64,000 nucleotides of DNA from a phage. Every line of letters starts with the position of its first letter. Positions within the stretch are counted from its first letter, which is position 1. The position numbers and the translations under genes were made by a program. The stretch is from assembly GCA_020241125.1 (NCBI GenBank), contig GCA_020241125.1_4708.1; one strand, 5' to 3'. The notes beneath the pieces are model-generated. The model searched no databases. It saw nothing but the letters and a program-made list of their open reading frames with translations, and was not told where the DNA came from. This document shows positions 4,108-51,495 of this stretch, in pieces.

Positions 4108-4139
4108 CATCCTCCCAACCCGTAAGGGAAGGGAGGATG
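4108..4139. terminator. conserved two-tier hairpin, family copy 1 (bidirectional)
   Basis: CATCCTCCC-AACCC-GTAA-GGG-AA-GGGAGGATG between convergent genes 3795-4103 and 4157-4786. Confidence 0.7.
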
Positions 4140-4802: not shown

Positions 4803-6029
4803 CTACTTCGTTTTCGCCGTTATCGGCTGCGATACTGTAATCTCGACCCGATCGACATCGGTACGTTTAACGATGATAAGGCTGCGTTCATCACCGAATG
4901 GTTCTGAGATCTTACAAGCCTCTTTAAGATTTTCGAGAATCGTGCCATGGGGTTCAAACACCGCAAAACCGGAACTAGCGTCGATTCTTATTAAATATAC
5001 ACGCACATTGTTTACGGTAATGGTGTCATCCGTCTTGAACCCACAGCAGGAGGGTAGACAGAACTGACCATTAACGCAATTAGCTAAGTATGCCTCACCA
5101 CCGAACATTTCTATTAACGTCACCGGTTTAAATGTTTTCTCTGGGAAAGCATTATTAAGAATATCGTTTCCATTCACAAACCAGATCGTTACTTTATCTT
5201 CGGAATACGCTAGTCTGTATGGTTGGGTTGCGGACGCCTGCGCTTTATGCTGGTTAAATAACTTTGATTTTGTCGCAATCACAGCACGACCTTGGGCGTC
5301 AAAGTACAGAACTTCATACCCAACACATCCGATAAACACGCGACGGTTATTAAGTTCCGGAATTCTGACTACTAACGCATTACCATCTTCCGTCGGTGTA
5401 ATACCACGTAGGATGATAGATTCGTTGTTCAATGTTGAGTTGCTCACGATGACGCTTCGCATTACCGCTGGCGACACTATTTCATCTGCTGCAGGTTCAA
5501 GTTGCTCCGCTGTTACAGTCACGGATCTGTCTTCCTTTTCAACTGGCCAGTTGAAAAGGATTGTTTTATTAAGACAAACAATTGGGGTAATTTCGCCGAT
5601 ACTCCGTATCTTGACTGAGGGGCAATTGCACACATACGGAACAAAAACATCAATATCGTTGGTCGCTTCTTCAAGCATGCTAGCATACGCCATTGCTTCG
5701 GGACGATCGGTGAGATGAATAACAGCATAGACGATATCGTCTTTTAACCACGCACGTTTCACTCGTCCTATAACACGATTGATGTCTACAATAACTCTCT
5801 GAGCTTTCATCTCCCATTTTACTGCATCAGTACCACCCGCAACCACGTTCGGTTTATCCGTGTTTACACGATGAAGGAAACTATTGATTATTTCCTCATC
5901 GATCTGGATATCCTTTCTCGCAAAATTCAACAACGGAATAACGAACTCATTGTTACCGCACTTCTCTGCTCCGCGAATGATAGGAGTACACTTCTTGTTC
6001 TCATCTGATCCCCAGATAACTTTAGTCAT
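4803..6029 (-). CDS. hypothetical protein (408 aa)
   Basis: ORF 4803-6056 begins with GTG; ATG 6029 has AAGGAAA RBS; N-terminus MTKVIWGSDENKK; no phosphoesterase motifs seen. Confidence 0.65.
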   Translation of the reverse strand: MTKVIWGSDENKKCTPIIRGAEKCGNNEFVIPLLNFARKDIQIDEEIINSFLHRVNTDKPNVVAGGTDAVKWEMKAQRVIVDINRVIGRVKRAWLKDDIVYAVIHLTDRPEAMAYASMLEEATNDIDVFVPYVCNCPSVKIRSIGEITPIVCLNKTILFNWPVEKEDRSVTVTAEQLEPAADEIVSPAVMRSVIVSNSTLNNESIILRGITPTEDGNALVVRIPELNNRRVFIGCVGYEVLYFDAQGRAVIATKSKLFNQHKAQASATQPYRLAYSEDKVTIWFVNGNDILNNAFPEKTFKPVTLIEMFGGEAYLANCVNGQFCLPSCCGFKTDDTITVNNVRVYLIRIDASSGFAVFEPHGTILENLKEACKISEPFGDERSLIIVKRTDVDRVEITVSQPITAKTK

Positions 6030-6062
6030 TTTCTGTTTCCTTCTTGGGTTTTGCACAAGTTT

Positions 6063-13905: not shown

Positions 13906-14205
13906 TTAATGTTTAGGTTCCGTTTTGTGTTGTGCGAGTAATGTGTTGATCTGCTCCCGTTGTTCTTTTAAGCATGCAGGAAGCTGGTCTTCCCGTACCG
14001 TTCCGATTTCCAACGTGATGTACCAACGTTGTTCGGAAGCCTGCCATTGAAAACTGCTCTGTAACCTCAGGATGCTAGGATCACGTACCTTGCTTGCACT
14101 GTAACGGTTGAACCAATCCAGGTATGCTGCTTTCCCTTCCTCGTCAGCGATGTAACGCTGCACGCTGTTCTTCCCTTTGTTCTCGTATCCCGTTGCACGT
14201 ATCAT
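13906..14205 (-). CDS. hypothetical protein (about 100 aa)
   Basis: ORF 13906-14259; ATG 14205 overlaps the stop of the upstream gene as ATGA. Confidence 0.5.
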   Translation of the reverse strand: MIRATGYENKGKNSVQRYIADEEGKAAYLDWFNRYSASKVRDPSILRLQSSFQWQASEQRWYITLEIGTVREDQLPACLKEQREQINTLLAQHKTEPKH

Positions 14206-14984
14206 GCGAACGTTTCTCCTGTAATGTGTTGCGGATGGCGTAGCATGGTAGCATCCCATTGTACGATCTGGCTTCGGCTTACCCGCATCATGATGGATTC
14301 GTCATCAAGCCCCTGTTGCGCAACCGGCAACCAACGTTCCCCAAGCACCTTCGCTTCAACACGTTTCTTGCGTGGGTTGTAACGCACCTCGCTAACCCAA
14401 GCGAATCCAAGCGGATGGACTACCCGTGGATAAAACATGCGAAGCAATTGATGCATCCGATCCGTTGCCTCCAATTTGCCATCCACCATGTAAGGTTTCA
14501 CCATGGTAAGCTTTTTGGTGTAATACGTTCCAACGGTATGGTTACGCCAACTTGGCAAGGCATGATCCCCTTCTCTCAGTTTGCTATCCGAGTTCATTGA
14601 CCAGACCTGCTGTTTACCGGCCAGCATCGCGTACTGCCGATCAACGCAACGAACCCGATCGGCGAACAATGGATCCAGGACATCATCCACCGCGCCCTTA
14701 TTGCGATAACCGTGATGTACCACCAACCTGCTTGCGCTCATCGATGCGGGATGCTGGCTCTTATGCGCATACAGCCCTCCGTCACCGCGAGCGTCGTAAA
14801 GATAACCGCATGCGCCACGCCATATCACCTTGCCTACGGTTCTCTCGTCTTCAAGCAGCATCGTCGGCCCATCAAGCAAATTGGTGAACCACTGCACCTT
14901 CACGCATTCCGCTTGGACATGCTCAGGTAATGCCTGATACTCTTTTTGGGTGTATAAGGTATCAAAAATGATTTCTTCGTTCAT
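14202..14984 (-). CDS. hypothetical protein (260 aa), first gene of a leftward unit
   Basis: ATG 14984; promoter-like motifs at 15065-15078 and 15116-15132 lie upstream on the minus strand. Confidence 0.65.
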   Translation of the reverse strand: MNEEIIFDTLYTQKEYQALPEHVQAECVKVQWFTNLLDGPTMLLEDERTVGKVIWRGACGYLYDARGDGGLYAHKSQHPASMSASRLVVHHGYRNKGAVDDVLDPLFADRVRCVDRQYAMLAGKQQVWSMNSDSKLREGDHALPSWRNHTVGTYYTKKLTMVKPYMVDGKLEATDRMHQLLRMFYPRVVHPLGFAWVSEVRYNPRKKRVEAKVLGERWLPVAQQGLDDESIMMRVSRSQIVQWDATMLRHPQHITGETFA

Positions 14985-15064
14985 TTAAAAAGTTCCTCTG
15001 TTTCACGTTAATTAAACAACGTATTGATTTCTATTTGACAGAATACGAACATCGTACGTATCTA

Positions 15065-15078
15065 TCACTTAGGTAACG
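15065..15078 (-). promoter_or_regulatory. TTACCTARGTGA motif, degenerate copy
   Basis: TCACTTAGGTAACG resembles the exact 16-mer found at 43272-43287 and 51447-51462. Confidence 0.3.
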
Positions 15079-15115
15079 CTTACGCGTCGCGTTCATGATA
15101 CCATGCATCATGAAG

Positions 15116-15132
15116 GTAATATAGCCGTGAAA
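15116..15132 (-). promoter_or_regulatory. candidate phage early promoter, second exact copy
   Basis: Identical 17-mer GTAATATAGCCGTGAAA (plus strand) upstream of the leftward small-gene cluster. Confidence 0.45.
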
Positions 15133-15367
15133 GGATTTGTGTTAACGCAAGGGTTTTGTTTGTTTTTTAAGAAGGGATGGATTTAGAAGAGGTGTTTCAA
15201 GGAAGGTAAACGAGAATAGGTATTTTGATTTAAGTAAGATGTTATCTGTATCCGTTAGAAGTGTATTGTCTAAGTTATCTTGTTTATCTTAGGTTTAATC
15301 GTTTTTATCTTGGTATGTTTAAGTTGTTTTTATTTAACTGTTAAAATGCTTATCTTCAAAACAATGG

Positions 15368-15422
15368 ATAACATGTGTTTACTACGCTCGTTGAGTTATA
15401 ACTCAACGGTAACACATGTCAT
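15368..15422. repeat. nested palindrome
   Basis: Perfect 20-bp palindrome CGTTGAGTTATAACTCAACG (15389-15408) flanked by inverted arms AACATGTGTT and AACACATGT. Confidence 0.6.
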
Positions 15423-15811
15423 CTGTGCATTACACTACGTTACATGCTAGTTAAATCGGATAACTCAAAAAAACATTTGTGATACTCTTCTTCACGTTGT
15501 TCATCAGAGTATCTCGTCTATACTCATTGCATTCGTATACGACATAACCGTTACACGCTAACGCTACGCTTATAGCTTGATAACTCTAAGGATAAAAACA
15601 TAAACTCGCTTCGCTCGTTTAGTTTTTCTTTTTCTTAGAGTTATCCTGTTGCTCGTCTCTAAAGGACTTCGCTCCTCCCCCGTCCCCCGAAGGGGCCGAG
15701 GTCGTGGAAATTTTACTTTCCAAATACATTTACAACATCTGTAAACTTTTACTCCAGGTACTTAATCTTATCATTAGAAATTATAAAAGAGAAAATAAAC
15801 ACAAACATAAA

Positions 15812-15846
15812 CCTTCCCCCGACCCGTAAGGGAAGGAGGAAGGGAG
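15812..15846 (-). terminator. conserved hairpin, family copy 3
   Basis: CCTTCCCCCGACCC-GTAA-GGGAAGGAGGAAGGG, 9 nt 3' of the stop of 15855-16748. Confidence 0.65.
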
Positions 15847-15854
15847 AGATTAAA

Positions 15855-16748
15855 TTATTCGGAAACGTTATAACCGAATACTGCTTTACCGTAGGTGTGA
15901 GTACCGTCAGCTAACGACAGCACCAACACATGGTTGTATGTAGCGTTAACGCCTTTATCGGTAGACCCGGTGGTAGCACCGTTATAGACAAAGGTAGCTG
16001 TTTGCAGATTGGTTTTCAGTTCATTGATGATATCATCACTTACACCAGTCTGTTCTTTAATCAGGGTGGTCAGGTTACCCGCTAAGCCTGCATCGATCTT
16101 GGTATCGTTACTGGTAATAGCTTGTAAACCTGCGGTGTAAGTACTGAAGTCTAACGGATAGGTTAACAGACGTGCTGAGGTCTTGGTACCATCGCCTTCA
16201 TCAACGTAGGTTAAGTTACCCAGATTGGTAACCTTGATGATGTTAGCCAGATCCAGCGTGGTGTTATAAACTTTAACTTGAACAGAGCCATACCACGCCA
16301 ACGAATCTTCTTTGGCTTCCAGGGTGATCGTCTGGATACCATGCTGGTCGAAGGTAACCGGCGTAGCTAACGTTTCGGCTTTGATGTCTTTCGCTTTATC
16401 CAGGAACTTCTCACCGGAAGGCGTGATCATACCGTAGCGTTGAGCTACAAGGTCAACCACATCACCGATGGTGGTGTTCGCCTCAACGTTAACACGTACA
16501 GCGATCTTCTGGAACCACTTAGCCAGATCCAGACGATGGTAGGTGACATCTCGGTTATTGAAGTAAGGGGTACCTTCACCAGGACTAAGTGTTAAAGTTG
16601 CTTCTGGAGCAGAAGGATTCTTTTCTTTAAGGACGTATTTAAGGTCGGTATATTTAAAGCTGGCACCAGTGTCAGCGTTAAGCTGGTTGATCTCATCAAC
16701 GATAAGTTGCCAAGGTGTTTTTAAAGTAAGCGATACTTGAGCAGTCAT
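15855..16748 (-). CDS. abundant (codon-optimised) protein, member of a six-gene paralog family
   Basis: ORF 15855-17024; ATG 16748 with GAGGAA RBS; strong host-like codon bias; motifs YHRLDLAKWF and LAWYGSV shared with 27809-31428 genes; followed by conserved hairpin 15812-15846. Confidence 0.8.
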   Translation of the reverse strand: MTAQVSLTLKTPWQLIVDEINQLNADTGASFKYTDLKYVLKEKNPSAPEATLTLSPGEGTPYFNNRDVTYHRLDLAKWFQKIAVRVNVEANTTIGDVVDLVAQRYGMITPSGEKFLDKAKDIKAETLATPVTFDQHGIQTITLEAKEDSLAWYGSVQVKVYNTTLDLANIIKVTNLGNLTYVDEGDGTKTSARLLTYPLDFSTYTAGLQAITSNDTKIDAGLAGNLTTLIKEQTGVSDDIINELKTNLQTATFVYNGATTGSTDKGVNATYNHVLVLSLADGTHTYGKAVFGYNVSE

Positions 16749-16887
16749 TTTCTTCCTCGATAGTTGGTACATCACTCTCAAAAGATGTAAGTGTTTACAG
16801 AAATTAATATATTTTATATTAAATGTGAATATTATGGAGAACGACTCCGAATCTCCTTTTCGACCATCAAAATCAGAGGACACGAAC

Positions 16888-17433
16888 ATGTCTACTTTAG
16901 ACTTTAACAAAGCAGCGAAATCCCTTCTGCTTGATCTTATTAACACCAAAGCGACCCGCACATTGGCTGAAGAAGAACTGCAGTTCGGTACTCCGCAGGA
17001 ATCTTCCGAACATGAAAAGAACACCGTTATTCAGCTGGACGCGGCGGCTGAAGCAGCTAACCTGCAGGGTACTCAGCAGTTCTACTACGATCGTCTGGCT
17101 CTGTCTGACGTTTTCGCTGATGTAACTGGTGATGTTACTTTCGAACTGCCGCACGGTACTGACAGCATTCAGGCTTCTGAGCTGGTAAGCAAGCTGGTCA
17201 CCAAATTCGGTCTGGCTTCCCTGAATGGTGAAATCAGAGAAGAAACCTTCCAGCTGTCTGCCGGTACTGTTGGTGAGGTAATTCTGAATGCGATCGAGGG
17301 TGGCCTGGTATACACTGGTACTCTGCGAGTTGCCCTGACCTACGCACTGGCACCAAAAGACGAACTGGCAACCGTTCTGGCGAATAACGTAGCTGAAGGT
17401 TTCGAGAAACCGACCGTTAGCGTTGTTGGCTAA
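16888..17433 (+). CDS. abundant (codon-optimised) protein, paralog-family member
   Basis: ORF 16825-17433; ATG 16888 follows AGAGGA; strong codon bias; QFYYDRLALSDVF motif; divergent from 15855-16748. Confidence 0.75.
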   Translation: MSTLDFNKAAKSLLLDLINTKATRTLAEEELQFGTPQESSEHEKNTVIQLDAAAEAANLQGTQQFYYDRLALSDVFADVTGDVTFELPHGTDSIQASELVSKLVTKFGLASLNGEIREETFQLSAGTVGEVILNAIEGGLVYTGTLRVALTYALAPKDELATVLANNVAEGFEKPTVSVVG

Positions 17434-18489: not shown

Positions 18490-20538
18490 TTAAATACCCT
18501 TGGTTCCCTTCACGTGATGTGCAATTTCTTCAACCATTGCACGCAGAGCACGAAGTTGTTGGTCATGTTCGTACCAACCACCCAACAGAACCCCGCTATA
18601 CACCATGGTGTCAAGACTTAACAGCCCTTTATCTGATACGTTGATCATTTCCGGGAACTGTTCTTGAACACGCTGTGCGATAACACCGATCTTCTCGACA
18701 TCAGGATCGTAGTTGTGACGGAAACGGGCAAGTCCGGTATACGCCATTTCACGTAAACGATCACTGAAAGATTCCGGATGATCTTTCAGATAACGAATGT
18801 CATGTTTACTACGTTCATCCGAGCGAATGTAAGCGTTAGGAACATCGATATTGCTGTTGAAGTACAGCGCACTACCACCGCCTGCAGAGTTCCCCCAATA
18901 GAAGCGTGTGATCTCACCGCCACCATTCTCCGTGATGATGACATGTTTACCTAAACGCGTACCGCCACTACCATCAACGAAGACCAGTTTGTTTCCGCTG
19001 TAAGAACCCCAGAACAAACGTGTATCGATGATGTGCGTTGCAGCGAGGCGGGCGTTACGTGGTGTAGAATACACGGTGTTAACATCTTGCTGCGCTTGCG
19101 CATCGGAAGCGATACCATAGTTCTGTACGTTACCTAACCCAACCTGCGCTTTCGTAACCGCGTGTGGGTTATCACGACGGTTAGCGTGAGCGTTAACCAG
19201 ATCACCCGCTAATTTCTGAATTGCCCAGTTGGTAGACTGTGGTGTCATGTAACGGTTAGTTGCAGAACCACCTTGCGCTTCAGCTTGGTTAGCGGTTGGA
19301 TAGTTCTCAACGCTTCCCAACCCTACTTGTGCCTTAGACACTTGGTGTGGGTTGTTCTTGTCAGCGATGTGCGCATTAAGCGGAACTAACGCAAAGGTCT
19401 CAATGGACGCTTTGGTTGTGTTCGGTGCCATTAATCGGTTAGCTGCAACACCGGCACGCGCTTCTTCTTCAGAAGCCATCGGATAGTCTTGCACATTCCC
19501 TAACCCAACCTGCGCTTTGGTTACTCTGTGTGGGTTGTTGTAATCGGCTTTATGTGCATTAAGTGGAATCAATGCGAACTGTTCAATCGCTGCAACAGTG
19601 CGTAGCGGCGTCATGAAACGGTTGTTCGCTGTTCCGGCTTTCGCCTCATCATCCGAAGCGGTCGGGAAGTTATCAACGTTCCCAAGGTTAACCTGTGCTT
19701 TGGTGACGCTATGCGGGTTGTCTCGACGGTTAGCGTGAGCGTCGACTAGATCGCCCGCCAGTTTAGCAATCGCCCATCCAACCGTTTGTGCTGTCATGTA
19801 ACGGTCTGGTGCGGTACCGGCTTCTGCCTCCGCCTTGTTGGCAGTAGGATAGTTCTGTACATTACCTAGTCCGACTTGGGCTTTTGTGGTTTCGTGCGGG
19901 TTATCGGTACGGTTAGCATGTGCGTAATGCAGATCGGTCAGATCTTTATCCGCTGCTTGCATGTCTTTGCGTAACTGATCGATTGCCGCCCAGAGACGGT
20001 TATCGGATGCAGCATCACCGATAAGTATTGCGGCTTTCAGTGAATAGATCGCTAAGCAAAGATGTTCGGTACCGTAGATAGCACTAACGTGGTGGATGTG
20101 TGGTTCAGGCGGATAAAGTTCCGGTTTGTTCTTGATGTCGTCCCAGTTGATCGGACGATCGTCAAGTTTGAGTTCTTCGATAGCCTGATATAACGCGTCA
20201 ATAAGACTTACGTAAACACCACCGATGATACGATAGTCGTTAACTAATGTACCCTCGATATCATCGTTGATGATGGCGATGGCTGCACAGATTTCTTTAC
20301 CAGCGTAAAGCGTAGCGTCCTGATACAAGAAGATGGGCTTATAATCCACACCTCGCACCAGTGTCTTACCGGTAAGCTTTTCGGTGATAACCAGACTTTC
20401 GGTGAAGAACGGTCCGCCATCAAGAGCGTAACATTTGTTCTCGGTTCGTGGAACGGTATGCTCTTCACCAACGATGTGGTTGCTATCGAGCGTGCCGGTC
20501 CAGTCCTCGGGGTACTTCAGGGTAATTGGTGTTGACAT
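18490..20538 (-). CDS. tail fibre with C-terminal intramolecular-chaperone (S74-like) domain
   Basis: Five tandem NPHxVTKAQVGLGNVxNY repeats; C-terminus SDERSKHDIRYL ... IGVIAQRVQEQFPEMI resembles the autoproteolytic chaperone domain of phage fibres and endosialidases. Confidence 0.85.
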   Translation of the reverse strand: MSTPITLKYPEDWTGTLDSNHIVGEEHTVPRTENKCYALDGGPFFTESLVITEKLTGKTLVRGVDYKPIFLYQDATLYAGKEICAAIAIINDDIEGTLVNDYRIIGGVYVSLIDALYQAIEELKLDDRPINWDDIKNKPELYPPEPHIHHVSAIYGTEHLCLAIYSLKAAILIGDAASDNRLWAAIDQLRKDMQAADKDLTDLHYAHANRTDNPHETTKAQVGLGNVQNYPTANKAEAEAGTAPDRYMTAQTVGWAIAKLAGDLVDAHANRRDNPHSVTKAQVNLGNVDNFPTASDDEAKAGTANNRFMTPLRTVAAIEQFALIPLNAHKADYNNPHRVTKAQVGLGNVQDYPMASEEEARAGVAANRLMAPNTTKASIETFALVPLNAHIADKNNPHQVSKAQVGLGSVENYPTANQAEAQGGSATNRYMTPQSTNWAIQKLAGDLVNAHANRRDNPHAVTKAQVGLGNVQNYGIASDAQAQQDVNTVYSTPRNARLAATHIIDTRLFWGSYSGNKLVFVDGSGGTRLGKHVIITENGGGEITRFYWGNSAGGGSALYFNSNIDVPNAYIRSDERSKHDIRYLKDHPESFSDRLREMAYTGLARFRHNYDPDVEKIGVIAQRVQEQFPEMINVSDKGLLSLDTMVYSGVLLGGWYEHDQQLRALRAMVEEIAHHVKGTKGI

Positions 20539-20551
20539 AACCTGGAGGTCC

Positions 20552-23149
20552 TTATAACGTGACTGTACCTAATTTGGTTGTCTTATTGAGATTAATGACT
20601 GAGATCTGGGTATCGCTGGTCGTGATGGTGCCGATATTAACGCGCTGTCCTTTATCATCCTCTTGCTTGTGGATGGTTAATTCCAGCTCTAACTGGTTAC
20701 CATTAGGAACAACGGAAACGTACCATGTTTTATTACCTGGTGAGCTATTATAGTCTTTTAGGTTATAATGGCCTTTAGGTAAGGTCATGGCCTTACCAGC
20801 AAACAAACATGAAATATCCTCGTTGATATAAACGTCGAAACCGGAAGAAGCGATGACTGTTGAGGCCATTATTCGAGACGCGACGATACCACGATTATAG
20901 TCGTCGATTGTGGTACCTATGACATTGAATACTTGCCCCCCGTTACCCATAATGGTCGATTCGCTAGTGTTTACGTAGCCGATACCCCAAGTCGGATGAA
21001 TGTTCCAGCGGTACCCACTGTTTTGTAAATATGTATACAAGTCTTCATAGGCCGCATTCACCCAACTACCATCACTTTTTCGTCCAGCCCTAAATTGGAA
21101 TGTATTGCTATTTCCAGATGTTCCTCGGCCAAGAGGGACATGTCCCGCCACTAACCAACCATCTGTACTTTGCATATACGCGAACGAACCGTACGCTCTG
21201 TTATCGGCCCAAATATTCACGGTATCAACACGTTCAACGTAGGCGATCACCTTTTGTACGCCGGTTATAGCGATCGAACCCTTGCGTGCCGACACACTAA
21301 CTTCAGCAATTACGACACCCATTTTCCGCTGGCTGCTGTTAAATCCCAATACAACCATTAAACACGGTGCGTTTGTTGTTTCTGGAGGAATCGTTATCGA
21401 TTGTTTCCAGTCGGTGATTCCGCTGAGTTTTGTTCCAGTATATGCGTTCCAGACGGTTTGTCCAGCCGATTTCAGATTCTGTTCAGAAATAGAAATGGCC
21501 TCGCCCTCAGGGATTAACGTGTCGTAATTGAGACCAATGTTGCTGGATAGACGAAGGTCGTTTAAGTAAGATCCGCTGAGTGTGACGTTACCGTTACGAT
21601 AAATTGTCAAGAATGGCGCAGCCAGGGAGTTTAATACCGTAAAGTTACTCGATGGCATGAAACCATAGACATCGATGCCATTACCGTGGTAATGGTAGTT
21701 TGTCCAACTACCTTGATAACTTACGGTACGTGCATCGTAGTGGCCTTGTCCAAGACCGCTGCTGGATAACGTGTATATCTTGGTTGCTGATAGAAATGCG
21801 AGATATCCATGCGCTGCCAGAGCTCCAACTACCCTGTCTTTTATCTTTAACCAAGCTGAAGTATACAACGTACTGTCGGGATTCATTTTGGCTATTTCAT
21901 CGTAAGCTGTGCCTGCGAAGTTTCCGATAGTGTACGTACGTATATCCGGCTGTCCGTTATTGTCGTTCTGTACAGCAATTACTTGCCCAGAATCATTGAT
22001 ATCGATATTACCGATACAGTTGTGAGCCCCCCACACCCAATATCCATCTTTATAATTGGATTCTCCTTGTGTAAATGTCGACGGTCCTCGCCACGCGATG
22101 CCGTTCGATTCGGCGTAGTAGGTAGCTTGTCCCGATCCTGGATTCATGGCGTATCTGTTATTGGTCGGGTCAAAATCGATGTAAAAATGATGCATTCCTT
22201 GACGTTGACGGTTGTCCCGATCATTTGTCCACCACGACGAACCGACCAGAATTCGCGCCTTACCATTTTTTACAGTGGACCATAAACGTATTGCGGCGCG
22301 CCAGACGATTTGACCGATCCCGTTGGACGGGAAACTATTCGTACTGATGCTGTTGCAGACAACGAGCTCGCTGCTGTTGTTTATTTGAGTCCCTTCAATT
22401 GTAACGCCGTTTATGTTAGTAATCAGTGTTGCCGATACACTACCCCCTGTAGGGGCGATAGAGGAACGTTGAACGGTGTAAATTTTTAGTGATAATTTAT
22501 AGCCGCTCCGAATAGCTATACCAATGTAAATAGTTCCATTAATTTCCCAACAACAAACATCGGGCATTGTTTCTTTGAAATCGGATAAAGCACCGTCGAT
22601 ATACATCGCAACGTGTTTGCTGGCGTCGAATGTGCCGTCCGTTAACGCGATGAACATTTTGGCATTATTACCGTTGATATCAGCCGCTAATCCGAGTAGT
22701 ATGTTGTTCTGATGACAGTAAATGGCTTTAGGCGCTAGATCCAACATAGCTGGTTGGTACTGTCGGCTTGTTGGTATTACGCTAGTAACTGCGCCATTTT
22801 GATCCGTTTTACAAATAACGTAATATACACCGTGTATGATGCTGTTTGTCGCTGACCTCAGTAGGACGATCGTCCCGTCAGATTCACGACATATACCGTA
22901 ATGACGATAGTCGGTGATTAAACCGATAGCGCCATCGGCCGAACCTTCGATTGCCAGAGGAAAATAACTTTGGTCCCCAACCTGTTCGATATCGGTTGCG
23001 CCGATATCGATGTATTTTTCCATCTCAGTGTTGAACTCAGCGGTACTGTAGGCACCGAGATCGCTCGCCTTTAGTCCCGTTGGGTTGTCACGACTGGCGA
23101 TACGTGTAGTAACGCTACTCACCAGTTCGCTGAACTTTTTCATTGCCAT
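20552..23149 (-). CDS. tail fibre or tailspike (865 aa)
   Basis: N-terminus MAMKKFSELVSSVTTRIASRDNP is shared with the two small downstream genes (adaptor-like); long beta-rich, G/N/S/T-rich body; GAGGTG RBS. Confidence 0.7.
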   Translation of the reverse strand: MAMKKFSELVSSVTTRIASRDNPTGLKASDLGAYSTAEFNTEMEKYIDIGATDIEQVGDQSYFPLAIEGSADGAIGLITDYRHYGICRESDGTIVLLRSATNSIIHGVYYVICKTDQNGAVTSVIPTSRQYQPAMLDLAPKAIYCHQNNILLGLAADINGNNAKMFIALTDGTFDASKHVAMYIDGALSDFKETMPDVCCWEINGTIYIGIAIRSGYKLSLKIYTVQRSSIAPTGGSVSATLITNINGVTIEGTQINNSSELVVCNSISTNSFPSNGIGQIVWRAAIRLWSTVKNGKARILVGSSWWTNDRDNRQRQGMHHFYIDFDPTNNRYAMNPGSGQATYYAESNGIAWRGPSTFTQGESNYKDGYWVWGAHNCIGNIDINDSGQVIAVQNDNNGQPDIRTYTIGNFAGTAYDEIAKMNPDSTLYTSAWLKIKDRVVGALAAHGYLAFLSATKIYTLSSSGLGQGHYDARTVSYQGSWTNYHYHGNGIDVYGFMPSSNFTVLNSLAAPFLTIYRNGNVTLSGSYLNDLRLSSNIGLNYDTLIPEGEAISISEQNLKSAGQTVWNAYTGTKLSGITDWKQSITIPPETTNAPCLMVVLGFNSSQRKMGVVIAEVSVSARKGSIAITGVQKVIAYVERVDTVNIWADNRAYGSFAYMQSTDGWLVAGHVPLGRGTSGNSNTFQFRAGRKSDGSWVNAAYEDLYTYLQNSGYRWNIHPTWGIGYVNTSESTIMGNGGQVFNVIGTTIDDYNRGIVASRIMASTVIASSGFDVYINEDISCLFAGKAMTLPKGHYNLKDYNSSPGNKTWYVSVVPNGNQLELELTIHKQEDDKGQRVNIGTITTSDTQISVINLNKTTKLGTVTL

Positions 23150-43128: not shown

Positions 43129-43271
43129 CCTCCATCAGATTGAAAACTATCACGCATAATACATTTCCCTTTTCTTGTTCTTATCGAGCCGACAGCCGAC
43201 GGTTTCAGCATCGTTCCTAGCGCGAGAACGACCTTACGTGTTGTCTATGCCTTATTCATCGCAGGCGTCTG

Positions 43272-43287
43272 TCACCTAGGTAATGTA
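43272..43287 (-). promoter_or_regulatory. conserved 16-mer TCACCTAGGTAATGTA (candidate promoter or operator)
   Basis: Exact repeat of 51447-51462; about 145 nt upstream of the start at 43128, just after a family hairpin. Confidence 0.4.
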
Positions 43288-43330
43288 AGCGTCAAATTTT
43301 TTCTATTCGCAACAATAAACGGCATAGAAA

Positions 43331-49629: not shown

Positions 49630-50532
49630 TTACTTAGTCTTCGAGTTACAAGGACTGACATGTTGTTGTACTCGTTGAATCGTATCGTAGTACGGGTTAG
49701 ATTGGTTGAACATGCTGTTGTGTGGATGATAGCCGTATGGCGCATTTTGCCTTGTTGATGAGAAACCTTGTTGAGAAGGACGATTTGAATTAACCGCGAG
49801 TACGTAGTAAACCAAATTTTGACGGTCGAACGTTCCTTCGTTTTTGAAGGTGTCGGCGTAGGTGTTTATCGCTGGAGCGAGTCTATCACCATCGGCGGTA
49901 ATAATTGTACCGTCTGGGTAAACTTCACGAACGACGCACCATGTTCCGATAAGAACGTCTTTGGGCGGCGTATTGCCGTATCCGGTTGTAACGGTAAGGT
50001 AAGTATCGAACCCTTCAGAACAACAAGGATGACGATAGATAGGTCCTGTCATTTCCGTTCTATCGGTATCGTCGCATTTCTCTATCGAGAGCGATGGTGT
50101 GTCGGTTTTGAAATTGTCAAATTCTTTCTTTAAGTCGATTACAGGTTCTTTCGTATAGTACTTCTTGATTGCTTTGACGTAAAGATCAGGAACGGTTGTC
50201 AGCATTCCGTTATACCTGATTCTCAGGTTTTCGAGTAATCCAAAGATACTCGCGCATGCTTGTTCGCGAGGTTTTGTAAGATAAGAGATCCCCCCAGGAA
50301 CGCTGGGATCTTTGAGAAAGAAGATTGCGTTATTGTCGTTGTGCAGTGCGTTGAAGAAAACGATTGATTCGATATATACGGAGCATAGGCTGTCGTTGGC
50401 GTCGTCAGATAACACCCAGATGCACTCATCGGTCGTCTTGTTTAAAAGTTCTGTTTTGTCCACCAAACGTTGTTTCATTGCGAGGAAATGTGCCTGTTGT
50501 TCAGCGGATAATTCACGATAAATAGTGGTCAT
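49630..50532 (-). CDS. hypothetical protein, tandem paralog of 50618-51391
   Basis: ORF 49630-50610; ATG 50532 with AAGGAG RBS; IYRHPCCSEGFDTYLTVTTGYG ... VREVYPDGTII aligns with IYIHPECHTTYDRYLTITGG ... IREIYPDGRIV. Confidence 0.7.
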   Translation of the reverse strand: MTTIYRELSAEQQAHFLAMKQRLVDKTELLNKTTDECIWVLSDDANDSLCSVYIESIVFFNALHNDNNAIFFLKDPSVPGGISYLTKPREQACASIFGLLENLRIRYNGMLTTVPDLYVKAIKKYYTKEPVIDLKKEFDNFKTDTPSLSIEKCDDTDRTEMTGPIYRHPCCSEGFDTYLTVTTGYGNTPPKDVLIGTWCVVREVYPDGTIITADGDRLAPAINTYADTFKNEGTFDRQNLVYYVLAVNSNRPSQQGFSSTRQNAPYGYHPHNSMFNQSNPYYDTIQRVQQHVSPCNSKTK

Positions 50533-51424: not shown

Positions 51425-51462
51425 GTGATAACAGTAACCGTTGTTATCACCTAGGTAATGTA
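51425..51462 (-). promoter_or_regulatory. conserved 16-mer plus adjacent 9-bp inverted repeat
   Basis: GTGATAACA-n8-TGTTATCAC (51425-51450) overlapping TCACCTAGGTAATGTA (51447-51462); about 35-70 nt upstream of ATG 51391. Confidence 0.4.
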
Positions 51463-51495
51463 GTCGCGAAATAAACTGGGTTAGACAGTATATGA

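Follow-up and report, generated by a model that had tools for sequence, protein, structure and literature searches.

A sharply bounded, highly conserved 288-nt element, possibly a structured non-coding RNA, at a late-to-early gene junction of a Goslar-like jumbo phage

The 64,000-nucleotide (nt) stretch of phage DNA analysed here (NCBI GenBank assembly GCA_020241125.1, contig GCA_020241125.1_4708.1; hereafter the window) carries at positions 14985-15854 a gene-free gap that is the junction of a late virion gene, the homolog of Goslar gp022, with an early operon, the homologs of gp021-gp014, and within this gap lies a 288-nt core (15465-15752) that has stayed nearly constant while the DNA around it diverged. 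Direct analysis established the anatomy of the gap, its promoter class, its terminator, and how far the core is conserved and how it folds. Sequence comparison gives strong support to the core being a functional element, which we regard as very probable. Our preferred reading, in which the core acts as an RNA from the minus strand, is in our judgement evenly poised between right and wrong, and for it we infer transcription, strand and role. Goslar is an E. coli phage with which the window is collinear at ~97% identity from about Goslar genome position 1, and by its sequence the window phage is a Goslar-like nucleus-forming jumbo phage.

A core conserved across Goslar-type phages

Relatives were gathered by a protein search with gp022, which returned 71 relatives (49-94% identity), often on contigs of ~240 kb, and DNA was fetched around 15 of these; a search with a 20-mer of the core supplied nine more metagenomic loci and one chance match. 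The core was compared across 26 related loci and the window, together representing 19 distinct variants, with a further alignment (A3) of 12 genomes and with fold and covariation checks on 18 variants. All ~240-kb genomes of the Goslar clade keep a gap of about 830-950 base pairs (bp) at this place with no gene called. An earlier note on this DNA, made from the sequence alone, had proposed that the gap is a replication origin, a regulatory hub or a locus for small structured RNAs, and had held that a protein-coding gene at this position in related genomes would speak against it; neither Goslar nor any of the 14 relatives' loci with gene calls across the gap has a called gene there.

15465-15752, minus strand (tentative): invariant core, candidate structured non-coding RNA (ncRNA), 288 nt
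15741-15752: palindromic 12-mer GTAAA-CT-TTTAC, right boundary of the core

Over the 19 variants every relative matches the core of the window at 94-99.6% identity, against 50-79% for the remainder of the gap (15146-15469) and ~74% for the flanks of the core. Its boundaries are sharp and common to all lineages, formed on the left by an A-run (15467-15473) and on the right by GTAAACTTTTAC (15741-15752). When the 12-kb neighbourhood is divided into 280-nt windows in the most divergent lineages, the core ranks among the top two for conservation, at an identity of 0.94-0.95 against a neighbourhood median of 0.81 and ~0.74 for the DNA directly beside it. The A3 alignment has 17 variable columns within the core, 8 of which fall in one hairpin tip. 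The ~99% identity of the core to Goslar was discarded as a sign of selection, as it equals the genome-wide baseline (median nucleotide identity of window and Goslar 97.7%, with many stretches at 100%). Measured against Goslar, positions 15420-15810 are ~99% identical and the flanking genes ~90%, and it is these genes that are unusually diverged.

The core is without the third-codon-position variation expected of coding DNA. An open reading frame (ORF) of 36 amino acids (aa) within it (15619-15729, minus strand) has no Shine-Dalgarno sequence, its changes are 2 non-synonymous to 1 synonymous, and it gave no Pfam match and no convincing family match. Rfam (Rfam 15) held no match at E <= 1 for either strand of 14500-16500, no paralog of the core was found in Goslar, and there was no match of the core to E. 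coli genomes and plasmids nor of a core 24-mer to GTDB species genomes. The IMG/VR search returned only three genomes that were already known, and in a blastn comparison of the gap with INPHARED phages Goslar was the sole match. By these comparisons the core belongs to no described RNA family, and a literature search for a chimallivirus origin or a Goslar ncRNA found nothing relevant.

The palindrome GTAAANNTTTAC (GTAAA-NN-TTTAC) that closes the core on its right occurs five times in Goslar against 0.33 expected, always in an intergenic region or at the edge of one. The other Goslar sites are at 81200, 173087, 176758 and 188961, and the settings of the palindrome include both DNA polymerase genes, the divergent region between chmA and gp245, and a convergent gene pair; the chmA/gp245 intergenic region shares a 16-nt identity with the 12-mer site of the gap. 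GTAAA-NN-TTTAC may be an operator for a dimeric phage protein.

Folding of the core and the choice of strand

15481-15513: hairpin A of the core
15516-15543: hairpin B of the core
15579-15645: hairpin E of the core, arms GATAACTCTAAG and CTTAGAGTTATC
15678-15701: hairpin F of the core
15706-15721: hairpin G of the core
15729-15745: hairpin H of the core

The core folds into a row of hairpins whose predicted pairing is retained almost without exception among its variants. A minus-strand RNAalifold consensus contains 84 pairs with 99.8% of cells paired, a share that drops to 36-53% when the partners are slid by 1-3 columns. Hairpin E, whose inner helices are AAAAAC/GTTTTT and TAAAC/GTTTA and whose minus-strand tip reads GCGAAGC, has 24 of 24 pairs invariant in the 18 variants, and the tip helix of hairpin B occurs in the states A-U/U-A, A-U/C-G, G.U/C-G and G-C/C-G. 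The arms of hairpin E are the 12-bp inverted repeat of the earlier note, which proved real at shifted coordinates: its first arm had been placed 10 bp too far left, and the arms at 15579-15590 and 15634-15645 enclose a spacer of 43 bp, not 53. Relative to shuffled sequences the fold z-scores are -4.86 for RNA and -5.44 for DNA on the minus strand, and -4.37 and -4.71, respectively, on the plus strand; because these four values are similar, fold energy cannot choose between strands or between types of nucleic acid.

Other features tentatively favour the minus strand, in that all the hints agree and none is decisive. Three independent one-sided stem changes leave G.U pairs on the minus strand and C x A mismatches on the plus strand, the consensus energy is lower for the minus strand (-78.9 kcal/mol) than for the plus strand (-62.2 kcal/mol), and a cUUCGg tetraloop is present on the minus strand in 17 of the 18 variants. 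The GCGNAGC and GCGNNAGC motifs, too, lie without exception on the minus strand. The segment that lies upstream of the core on the minus strand (15753-15811) is found in all lineages, while the sequence upstream on the plus strand has been replaced or deleted in three related loci (L005, L031 and L033), and the left boundary of the core becomes a U-run when read on the minus strand. The strand call rests on few evolutionary events. Of the three proposals in the earlier note, the structured-RNA locus is plausible and corresponds to our preferred reading, for the 288-nt core, which that note had not singled out.

A loop within the core has also changed orientation. In L031 the loop of hairpin F is inverted (CGAA against TTCG) and the stem has been perfected at the same time. 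Such inverted loops bear the signature of template switching at quasi-palindromes, a process that can mimic compensatory evolution.

A late terminator and an early promoter at the edges of the gap

15855-15857 (stop codon), minus strand: gp022 homolog, late virion gene, upstream of the gap in the direction of transcription
15812-15836, minus strand: intrinsic terminator of gp022, 9 pairs followed by TTTATGTTTG, 19 nt past the stop codon
15753-15811, minus strand: AT-rich spacer, GC 0.22, including the U-rich tail of the gp022 terminator
15104-15145, minus strand: early promoter of the virion-RNA-polymerase type, core TATATTAC running from 15123 to 15116 and pointing at gp021
14985-15103, minus strand: 5' untranslated region (5'UTR) of the gp021-gp014 early operon, with a ribosome-binding site immediately before the start codon (14984) and two hairpins, one of them at 15075-15093
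14202-14984, minus strand: gp021 homolog, start codon ATG at 14984

Both genes that flank the gap lie on the minus strand and are read leftward, and the upstream neighbour gp022 is a virion protein of family DUF7941. At 870 bp the gap is the longest stretch of the window without an ORF of at least 60 aa on either strand (the runner-up has 243 bp), and it is AT-rich (GC 0.359 against 0.469 for the window), in both respects as the earlier note had described it. Nowhere in the 64 kb are 100-bp windows richer in AT than at 15264-15363 and 15711-15810 (both GC 0.23), which fall within it. The Goslar counterpart, 14972-15825, is unannotated and is the largest gene-free interval in the Goslar annotation.

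The early promoter belongs to a recurring class. Enrichment of k-mers in Goslar intergenic DNA yielded GTAAT(A/G)TA, the reverse complement of TA(T/C)ATTAC, and the class consensus TTTCACGGCTAyATTACC is matched strongly at ~14 sites in Goslar. Every one of them lies on the minus strand, 40-130 nt ahead of a gene, and the nuclear-shell gene chmA is among the genes so preceded. The promoter in the gap scores 45.7 bits against the position weight matrix of the class and, with a mean pairwise identity of 0.94, is better conserved than any other block in the left half of the gap. In the window the class is represented at 2506-2547, 15104-15145, 43268-43309 and 51443-51484, in each case on the minus strand. 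The class agrees with the published rule that all jumbo phages encoding RNA polymerases have a conserved AT-rich early-promoter motif near -10 that is read by the virion RNA polymerase, and the same review holds that their middle and late promoters are not predictable from sequence (Sokolova et al. 2020, PMC7598289).

Published RNA sequencing (RNA-seq) that compares ChmA knockdown with a non-targeting control (Armbruster et al., Sup. Table 2; bioRxiv 10.1101/2023.09.20.558163) places these sites in a transcriptional context. In that work ChmA knockdown arrests infection at the early vesicle stage with an early transcriptome; expression is retained for gp001-004, gp014-021, gp037-040 and gp044-047 and collapses for gp005-013, gp022-036, gp041-043 and gp048-050. 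The log2 fold change of gp014-021 in the knockdown is +0.8 to +1.4, and the reads of gp022 go from 417-508 in the control to 4-14. Within the range of the window, each of the four early blocks has one of the four predicted promoters precisely at its 5' end, with 2506-2547, 43268-43309 and 51443-51484 heading gp004-001, gp040-037 and gp047-044, respectively. Across Goslar the first gene downstream has a positive log2 fold change at 14 of 14 sites and the upstream neighbours collapse. The position of the transcription start is indicated only indirectly, by chmA, whose transcript start lies within 91 nt of its ATG with the motif 73 nt upstream. The gap is a late-to-early operon boundary because the promoters of the early blocks match retained expression while gp022 is lost in the knockdown, and we hold the assignments of the gp022 terminator and the gp021 early promoter with high confidence. 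The Goslar equivalent of the site at 51443-51484 (Goslar 49713-49754) overlaps the annotated start of gp047, whose start codon or gene call may be wrong.

The regulatory hub that the earlier note had offered as one of its three readings is borne out by this late-gene terminator and validated early promoter with its 5'UTR. The two hairpins it had reported at the right edge are the GC-rich hairpin 15678-15701 and the terminator hairpin 15812-15836. Of its two promoter-like motifs at the left edge, the one at 15118-15145 (minus strand) coincides with the genuine phage promoter, and the one at 14914-14941 lies inside gp021; a sigma-70 scan gave 4 sites against 4.2 expected, no excess over chance.

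The gp022 terminator is itself a member of a repeated family, its word AGGGAAGG occurring in 12 intergenic regions of Goslar. Hairpins of this family, CCTTCC(C/T)CC(A/G)ACCCGTAAGGGAAGG, are near-identical and recur behind many genes, with window copies at 4118, 15822, 27778, 48142, 51506 and 62746, and no other intergenic word of Goslar is as strongly enriched as the terminator word. Between terminator and core, the spacer 15753-15811 occurs in two sequence types that are ~70% identical, both with a conserved TAATCTTAT, and it contains a conserved ATAAGATTA at 15763-15771 (minus strand), 8-22 nt upstream of the core. The spacer is a possible promoter for the core. As a promoter motif shared with other genes ATAAGATTA was rejected, as it is unique in the genome, with no other occurrence in Goslar. 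At the opposite edge, the 5'UTR carries an indel of 43 bp (15064-15106) bordered by a direct repeat of 13 bp; the segment is present in the window, in L020 and in UViG11560 (UViG_3300011560, the locus L005 named above) and is absent from the other relatives.

A fast-evolving middle

15146-15240: purine-rich, C-poor block
15241-15366, plus strand: loose TTATCT(TAG) array, 5 copies, GC 0.26
15367-15423: nested palindrome (hairpin), outer arms 15367-15379 and 15411-15423, 13 nt, 92% complementary
15424-15464: variable linker, mean pairwise identity 0.44-0.60, many indels

Between the early promoter and the core the gap changes rapidly. The purine-rich block shows invariant sub-blocks among indels in the 12-genome alignment, one of them an invariant TTTCAAGGAAGGT at 15195-15207, and an ORF of 10-17 aa within it was rejected, its frame differing between clades. 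Cytosine is depleted on the plus strand throughout 15146-15366, with 4 C in the 95 nt of the block and then 13 C in 126 nt.

The TTATCT repeats described in the earlier note are present at 15242, 15275, 15284, 15305 and 15350, all on the plus strand, so that 5 of the window's 20 copies fall within 114 bp where ~0.04 are expected. Among lineages there are 2-11 TTATC units in a single orientation, with consensus (G/T)TTATCTT(A/G)G and positions that turn over; units are 6-9 bp long (TTATCT/TTATCTTAG), spacings range from 6 to 130 bp, and the region is rich in indels in the 12-genome alignment. Helical phasing of the units was not found (R <= 0.24 at periods of 9-13 bp). As a DnaA, Fur, IHF or MotA box TTATCT was rejected by eye (not formally), the required flanking bases being absent, and a TTA-TCT 'Leu-Ser' ORF was rejected on the ground that its changes are all non-synonymous.

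The nested palindrome, likewise as the earlier note had it, contains an inner perfect 20-nt palindrome at 15389-15408. Its stem is invariant in 11 of the 12 aligned genomes and its loop varies, an inner 16-nt insertion being found only in this window. The palindrome is absent from UViG11560, L031 and L033: L031 has 148 nt from promoter to core without array and palindrome, and L033 has two TTATC units, the array being essentially absent. Judged by these genomes, array and palindrome are dispensable in natural relatives and are not an essential part of the gap. The variable linker carries GGATAAC at 15458 and, in some relatives, an additional AACGTTTTGT-loop-ACAAAACGTT hairpin; the loop of this AACGTTTTGT...ACAAAACGTT hairpin is inverted between L020 and L014 (GAAG against CTTC).

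Proposed organisation and alternative explanations

In the order of transcription, the gp022 terminator is followed by the 288-nt core, a labile, AT-rich and C-poor spacer, and finally the early promoter and structured 5'UTR of gp021-gp014. Strong purifying selection acts on all positions of the core, which in our proposal would be an independent, clade-specific structured ncRNA made from the minus strand, with a predicted 5' end near GUAAAAGUUUAC (15752) and a predicted 3' end at the U-run 15474-15468. Loops and linkers vary as little as stems do, for which reason a protein partner or a tertiary structure is to be expected, and the RNA would act bound to protein or through tertiary structure rather than by simple antisense pairing. 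Several observations weigh against this proposal. The core has neither a recognisable promoter nor a canonical terminator at its ends, the U-run lying 7 nt from the nearest stem, and the published Goslar RNA-seq was analysed per gene, with the gap outside its scope. DNA and the plus strand give folding z-scores just as strong, and the probability that the three G.U-compatible changes all agree on one strand by chance is about 0.25. With so little sequence variation there is scant covariation: both sides have changed in just 3 pairs and most pairs never vary. Predicted pairs are broken at 182-207 in L031, at 187-202 in L014 and L023, and at 217-231 in L038-40 (GxG), and the 'compensatory' stem of L031 looks like a single template switch at a quasi-palindrome. 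Finally, in L013, the most distant lineage (gp022 50% identical), the gene order differs and a 374-bp gap leads from the terminator directly to the early promoter, leaving this sister lineage without the core at this position; its clade was sampled over 10.9 kb only.

The core could instead act as DNA, with hairpins that form when its minus strand is single-stranded serving as a priming or primosome-entry signal of the G4 oric or plasmid ssi type or as part of a transcript-primed origin, and with the AT-rich spacer as the site of unwinding, an explanation that we consider unlikely. It draws on three mini-hairpin motifs on the minus strand of the core (GCGAAGC at 15608-15614, GCGTAGC at 15563-15569 and GCGTTAGC at 15557-15564) with none on the plus strand, the top such cluster in the window against a background rate on each strand of 0.14 in 288 nt (for one such 288-nt stretch, P(>=3) = 4e-4); five lineages have four, and further GCGAAGC or CCGAAGG motifs arise repeatedly on the minus strand by lineage-specific changes. 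Genome-wide, however, 2 clusters are seen against ~0.7 expected by chance, a marginal excess that was noticed post hoc and that we take as a lead towards a DNA-level role rather than as proof of one. Motifs of this kind occur at the complementary-strand origins of G4, St-1 and alpha3, at RSF1010 ssiA and in the hairpin promoters of the N4 virion RNA polymerase (Hirao review, PMC13037366). The minus-strand fold with DNA parameters has the strongest z-score of the four (-5.44), the core is bordered by the two 100-bp windows of the 64 kb that are lowest in GC, and the GTAAANNTTTAC palindrome at its edge also lies by both DNA polymerase genes; the cUUCGg loop and the G.U pairs, on the other hand, are features of RNA. 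Known ssi and oric signals measure 40-150 nt and are less uniformly conserved than the 288-nt core, which speaks against a DNA signal of this type. GC skew also has no inflection at 15 kb, the AT-rich array is missing in L031 and L033, and no initiator- or primase-like neighbour is recognisable. Core and AT-rich neighbour together might form the replication start region of Goslar-type nucleus-forming phages, with a structured, partly G-rich minus-strand transcript and/or a single strand studded with mini-hairpins priming DNA synthesis in the manner of ColE1, the T4 ori or the G4 oric; this we hold to be decidedly unlikely, and it would explain why neither an initiator protein nor iteron logic is visible in these genomes. 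The replication origin of the earlier note, taken as an iteron-type origin in which an initiator would bind the TTATCT repeats while palindrome and AT-rich DNA melt, is very improbable and largely refuted. Five same-strand repeats do lie beside palindromes in the most AT-rich DNA of the window, and an AT-rich unwinding region is adjacent, but units of 6-9 bp, irregular, unphased and in 2-11 copies, stand against an expectation of at least 3 helically phased units of ~17-22 bp. Such an iteron origin is left unsupported because array and palindrome are missing from natural relatives, evolve fast and show no phasing. The seven downstream early proteins have no Pfam or PHROG family match, so that no initiator gene is recognisable next to the gap, and the helicase and polymerase genes are >24 kb away. 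Cumulative GC skew over the whole Goslar genome, a check proposed in the earlier note, has no inflection near 15 kb, being flat over 0-100 kb with a minimum at ~214 kb, a weak test for phages.

As a platform of duplex DNA for phage DNA-binding proteins, the core would be an operator or enhancer for the early promoter or the late gene, or would organise the genome, and no functional RNA would be made. The dimer-type palindrome GTAAANNTTTAC with its five intergenic or intergenic-edge copies in Goslar, TTTAC half-sites at 15712, 15729 and 15748, GATAAC/GTTATC motifs flanking several hairpins, and loops conserved as strongly as stems would all suit such a platform, which we nevertheless find quite improbable: 288 contiguous invariant positions far exceed the needs of a few operators, 13 other early-class promoters work without such an element, and the row of hairpins, the covarying tip helix and the pattern of variable loops on conserved stems indicate a folded single strand. 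There is a slim prospect that only terminator and promoter are functional and that the core is a passive 3'UTR of gp022 or a recombination linker homogenised by module exchange. The genomes are strongly mosaic, with long blocks of 97-100% identity beside blocks of 60-77%, recombinant haplotypes exist within the core itself (L017 and L020), and a segment at ~18500 is equally conserved in the neighbourhood. A passive stretch is, however, at odds with the same block and the same sharp edges in all 19 variants irrespective of flank type, with two core haplotypes that differ by ~5% while their flanks differ by ~25%, and with strongly non-random folding z-scores. That the gap hides an unannotated gene for a small protein is hardly credible, although short ORFs exist (56 aa at 15280-15450 and others of 41 and 31 aa on the plus strand, in addition to the 36-aa ORF on the minus strand) and one short ORF has a weak PHROG match (E = 0.02). 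The 56-aa ORF spans the palindrome that relatives lack, the 36-aa ORF has the defects given above, and a small gene is further contradicted by the absence of a codon-position pattern of variation, of a Pfam match and of a gene-caller prediction in any relative.

Comparison with known systems

The closest described analogues of the core as an RNA are the UTR-adjacent ncRNA candidates of phiKZ and the 3'UTR-derived ncRNAs of PAK_P3 (PMC10914365). Like them, the core occupies an intergenic slot directly after a late gene, lies in the 120-300 nt range, is structured and is conserved within the genus; unlike them, it is known from sequence alone, is unrelated to described RNAs, and with its 288 nt is larger and more uniformly conserved, with invariant loops. 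The early promoter resembles those of phiKZ and AR9 (PMC7598289) in having an AT-rich conserved motif of ~10 nt with ~14 copies per genome upstream of vesicle-stage operons, and differs in the longer Goslar-clade consensus (TTTCACGGCTAyATTACC). With the G4, St-1 and alpha3 origins, RSF1010 ssiA and the N4 hairpin promoters (PMC13037366) the core shares adjacent hairpins tipped GCGNAGC, GCGNNAGC or CCGAAGG on one strand; in contrast to these single-stranded DNA signals of the G4 type, it belongs to a double-stranded genome that replicates in a phage nucleus, it is two to seven times longer, and its enrichment in such motifs is marginal on the scale of the genome.

The gap as a whole is AT-rich and sets direct repeats of the same orientation beside inverted repeats, as do lambda ori, P1 oriR and theta plasmid origins, yet its repeats are much shorter than iterons, irregular, unphased, variable in number and dispensable, and there is no initiator gene in cis. 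Transcript-primed origins such as ColE1 RNA II, T4 oriF/oriG and the T7 primary origin, where a structured or G-rich transcript region adjoins an AT-rich stretch, resemble the gap by analogy only; the phage encodes an RNase H (gp190 annotation), and unlike in these origins the AT-rich part of the gap is missing in some relatives.

Goslar serves as the E. coli model for nucleus-forming (chimalli-) phages, a group that attracts study because it replicates in compartments and resists DNA-targeting defences, and in every known close relative the core is more strongly conserved than the neighbouring proteins while matching no described RNA, protein or host sequence. Should the core be an RNA, it would represent a new family of phage ncRNAs in a system where RNA export, ChmC RNA-binding proteins, and dCas13d or antisense oligomers are established; should it be a DNA element, it would be a candidate replication-initiation or priming site of these phages. 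A by-product of the analysis is a consensus for the early promoters of the Goslar clade that was validated against published RNA-seq and delimits early operons.

Neighbouring genes and further observations

For the gp022 homolog the mechanical ORF call is 15855-17024, beginning with GTG at 17024 and giving 389 aa; the true start is the ATG that yields MTAQVSL... (297 aa), in keeping with the Goslar annotation and with all homologs of 297-299 aa. On the other side of the gap, the gp021 protein is only ~61% identical to that of Goslar, and part of the gene (especially 14552-14895) cannot be aligned as DNA, while the adjacent gp014-gp020 are 97-100% identical. Relatives carry two allelic forms of gp021 (250 and 260 aa) with no family match, and gp021 looks like a fast-evolving early accessory gene. 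Synteny beyond the clade was uninformative in tblastn searches, with gp021 clade-specific and the next gp022 relatives at most 28% identical. ARAGORN found no tRNA or transfer-messenger RNA in the window.

Two stretches of the window, 5511-6035 and 21089-21979, which correspond to gp009 and gp026, could not be aligned to Goslar by blastn in a genome that is otherwise 96-97% identical, and look like mosaic replacements. The gp025 homolog (19100-19900), a virion protein containing Peptidase_S74, has internal repeats that are 63-81% identical, and several metagenomic assemblies break close to it. Contig ends of metagenomic assemblies were considered as a hint of a pac site and rejected: they are mutually inconsistent and located in a repeat-containing tail-fibre gene. 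Outside the window, Goslar has a second large gene-free stretch at 82470-83288 (819 bp), which follows directly after the NUMOD1/HNH endonuclease gene gp069, adjoins the DNA polymerase fragment gp068 and has no Rfam match at the gathering threshold; it is probably intron or unannotated exon sequence.

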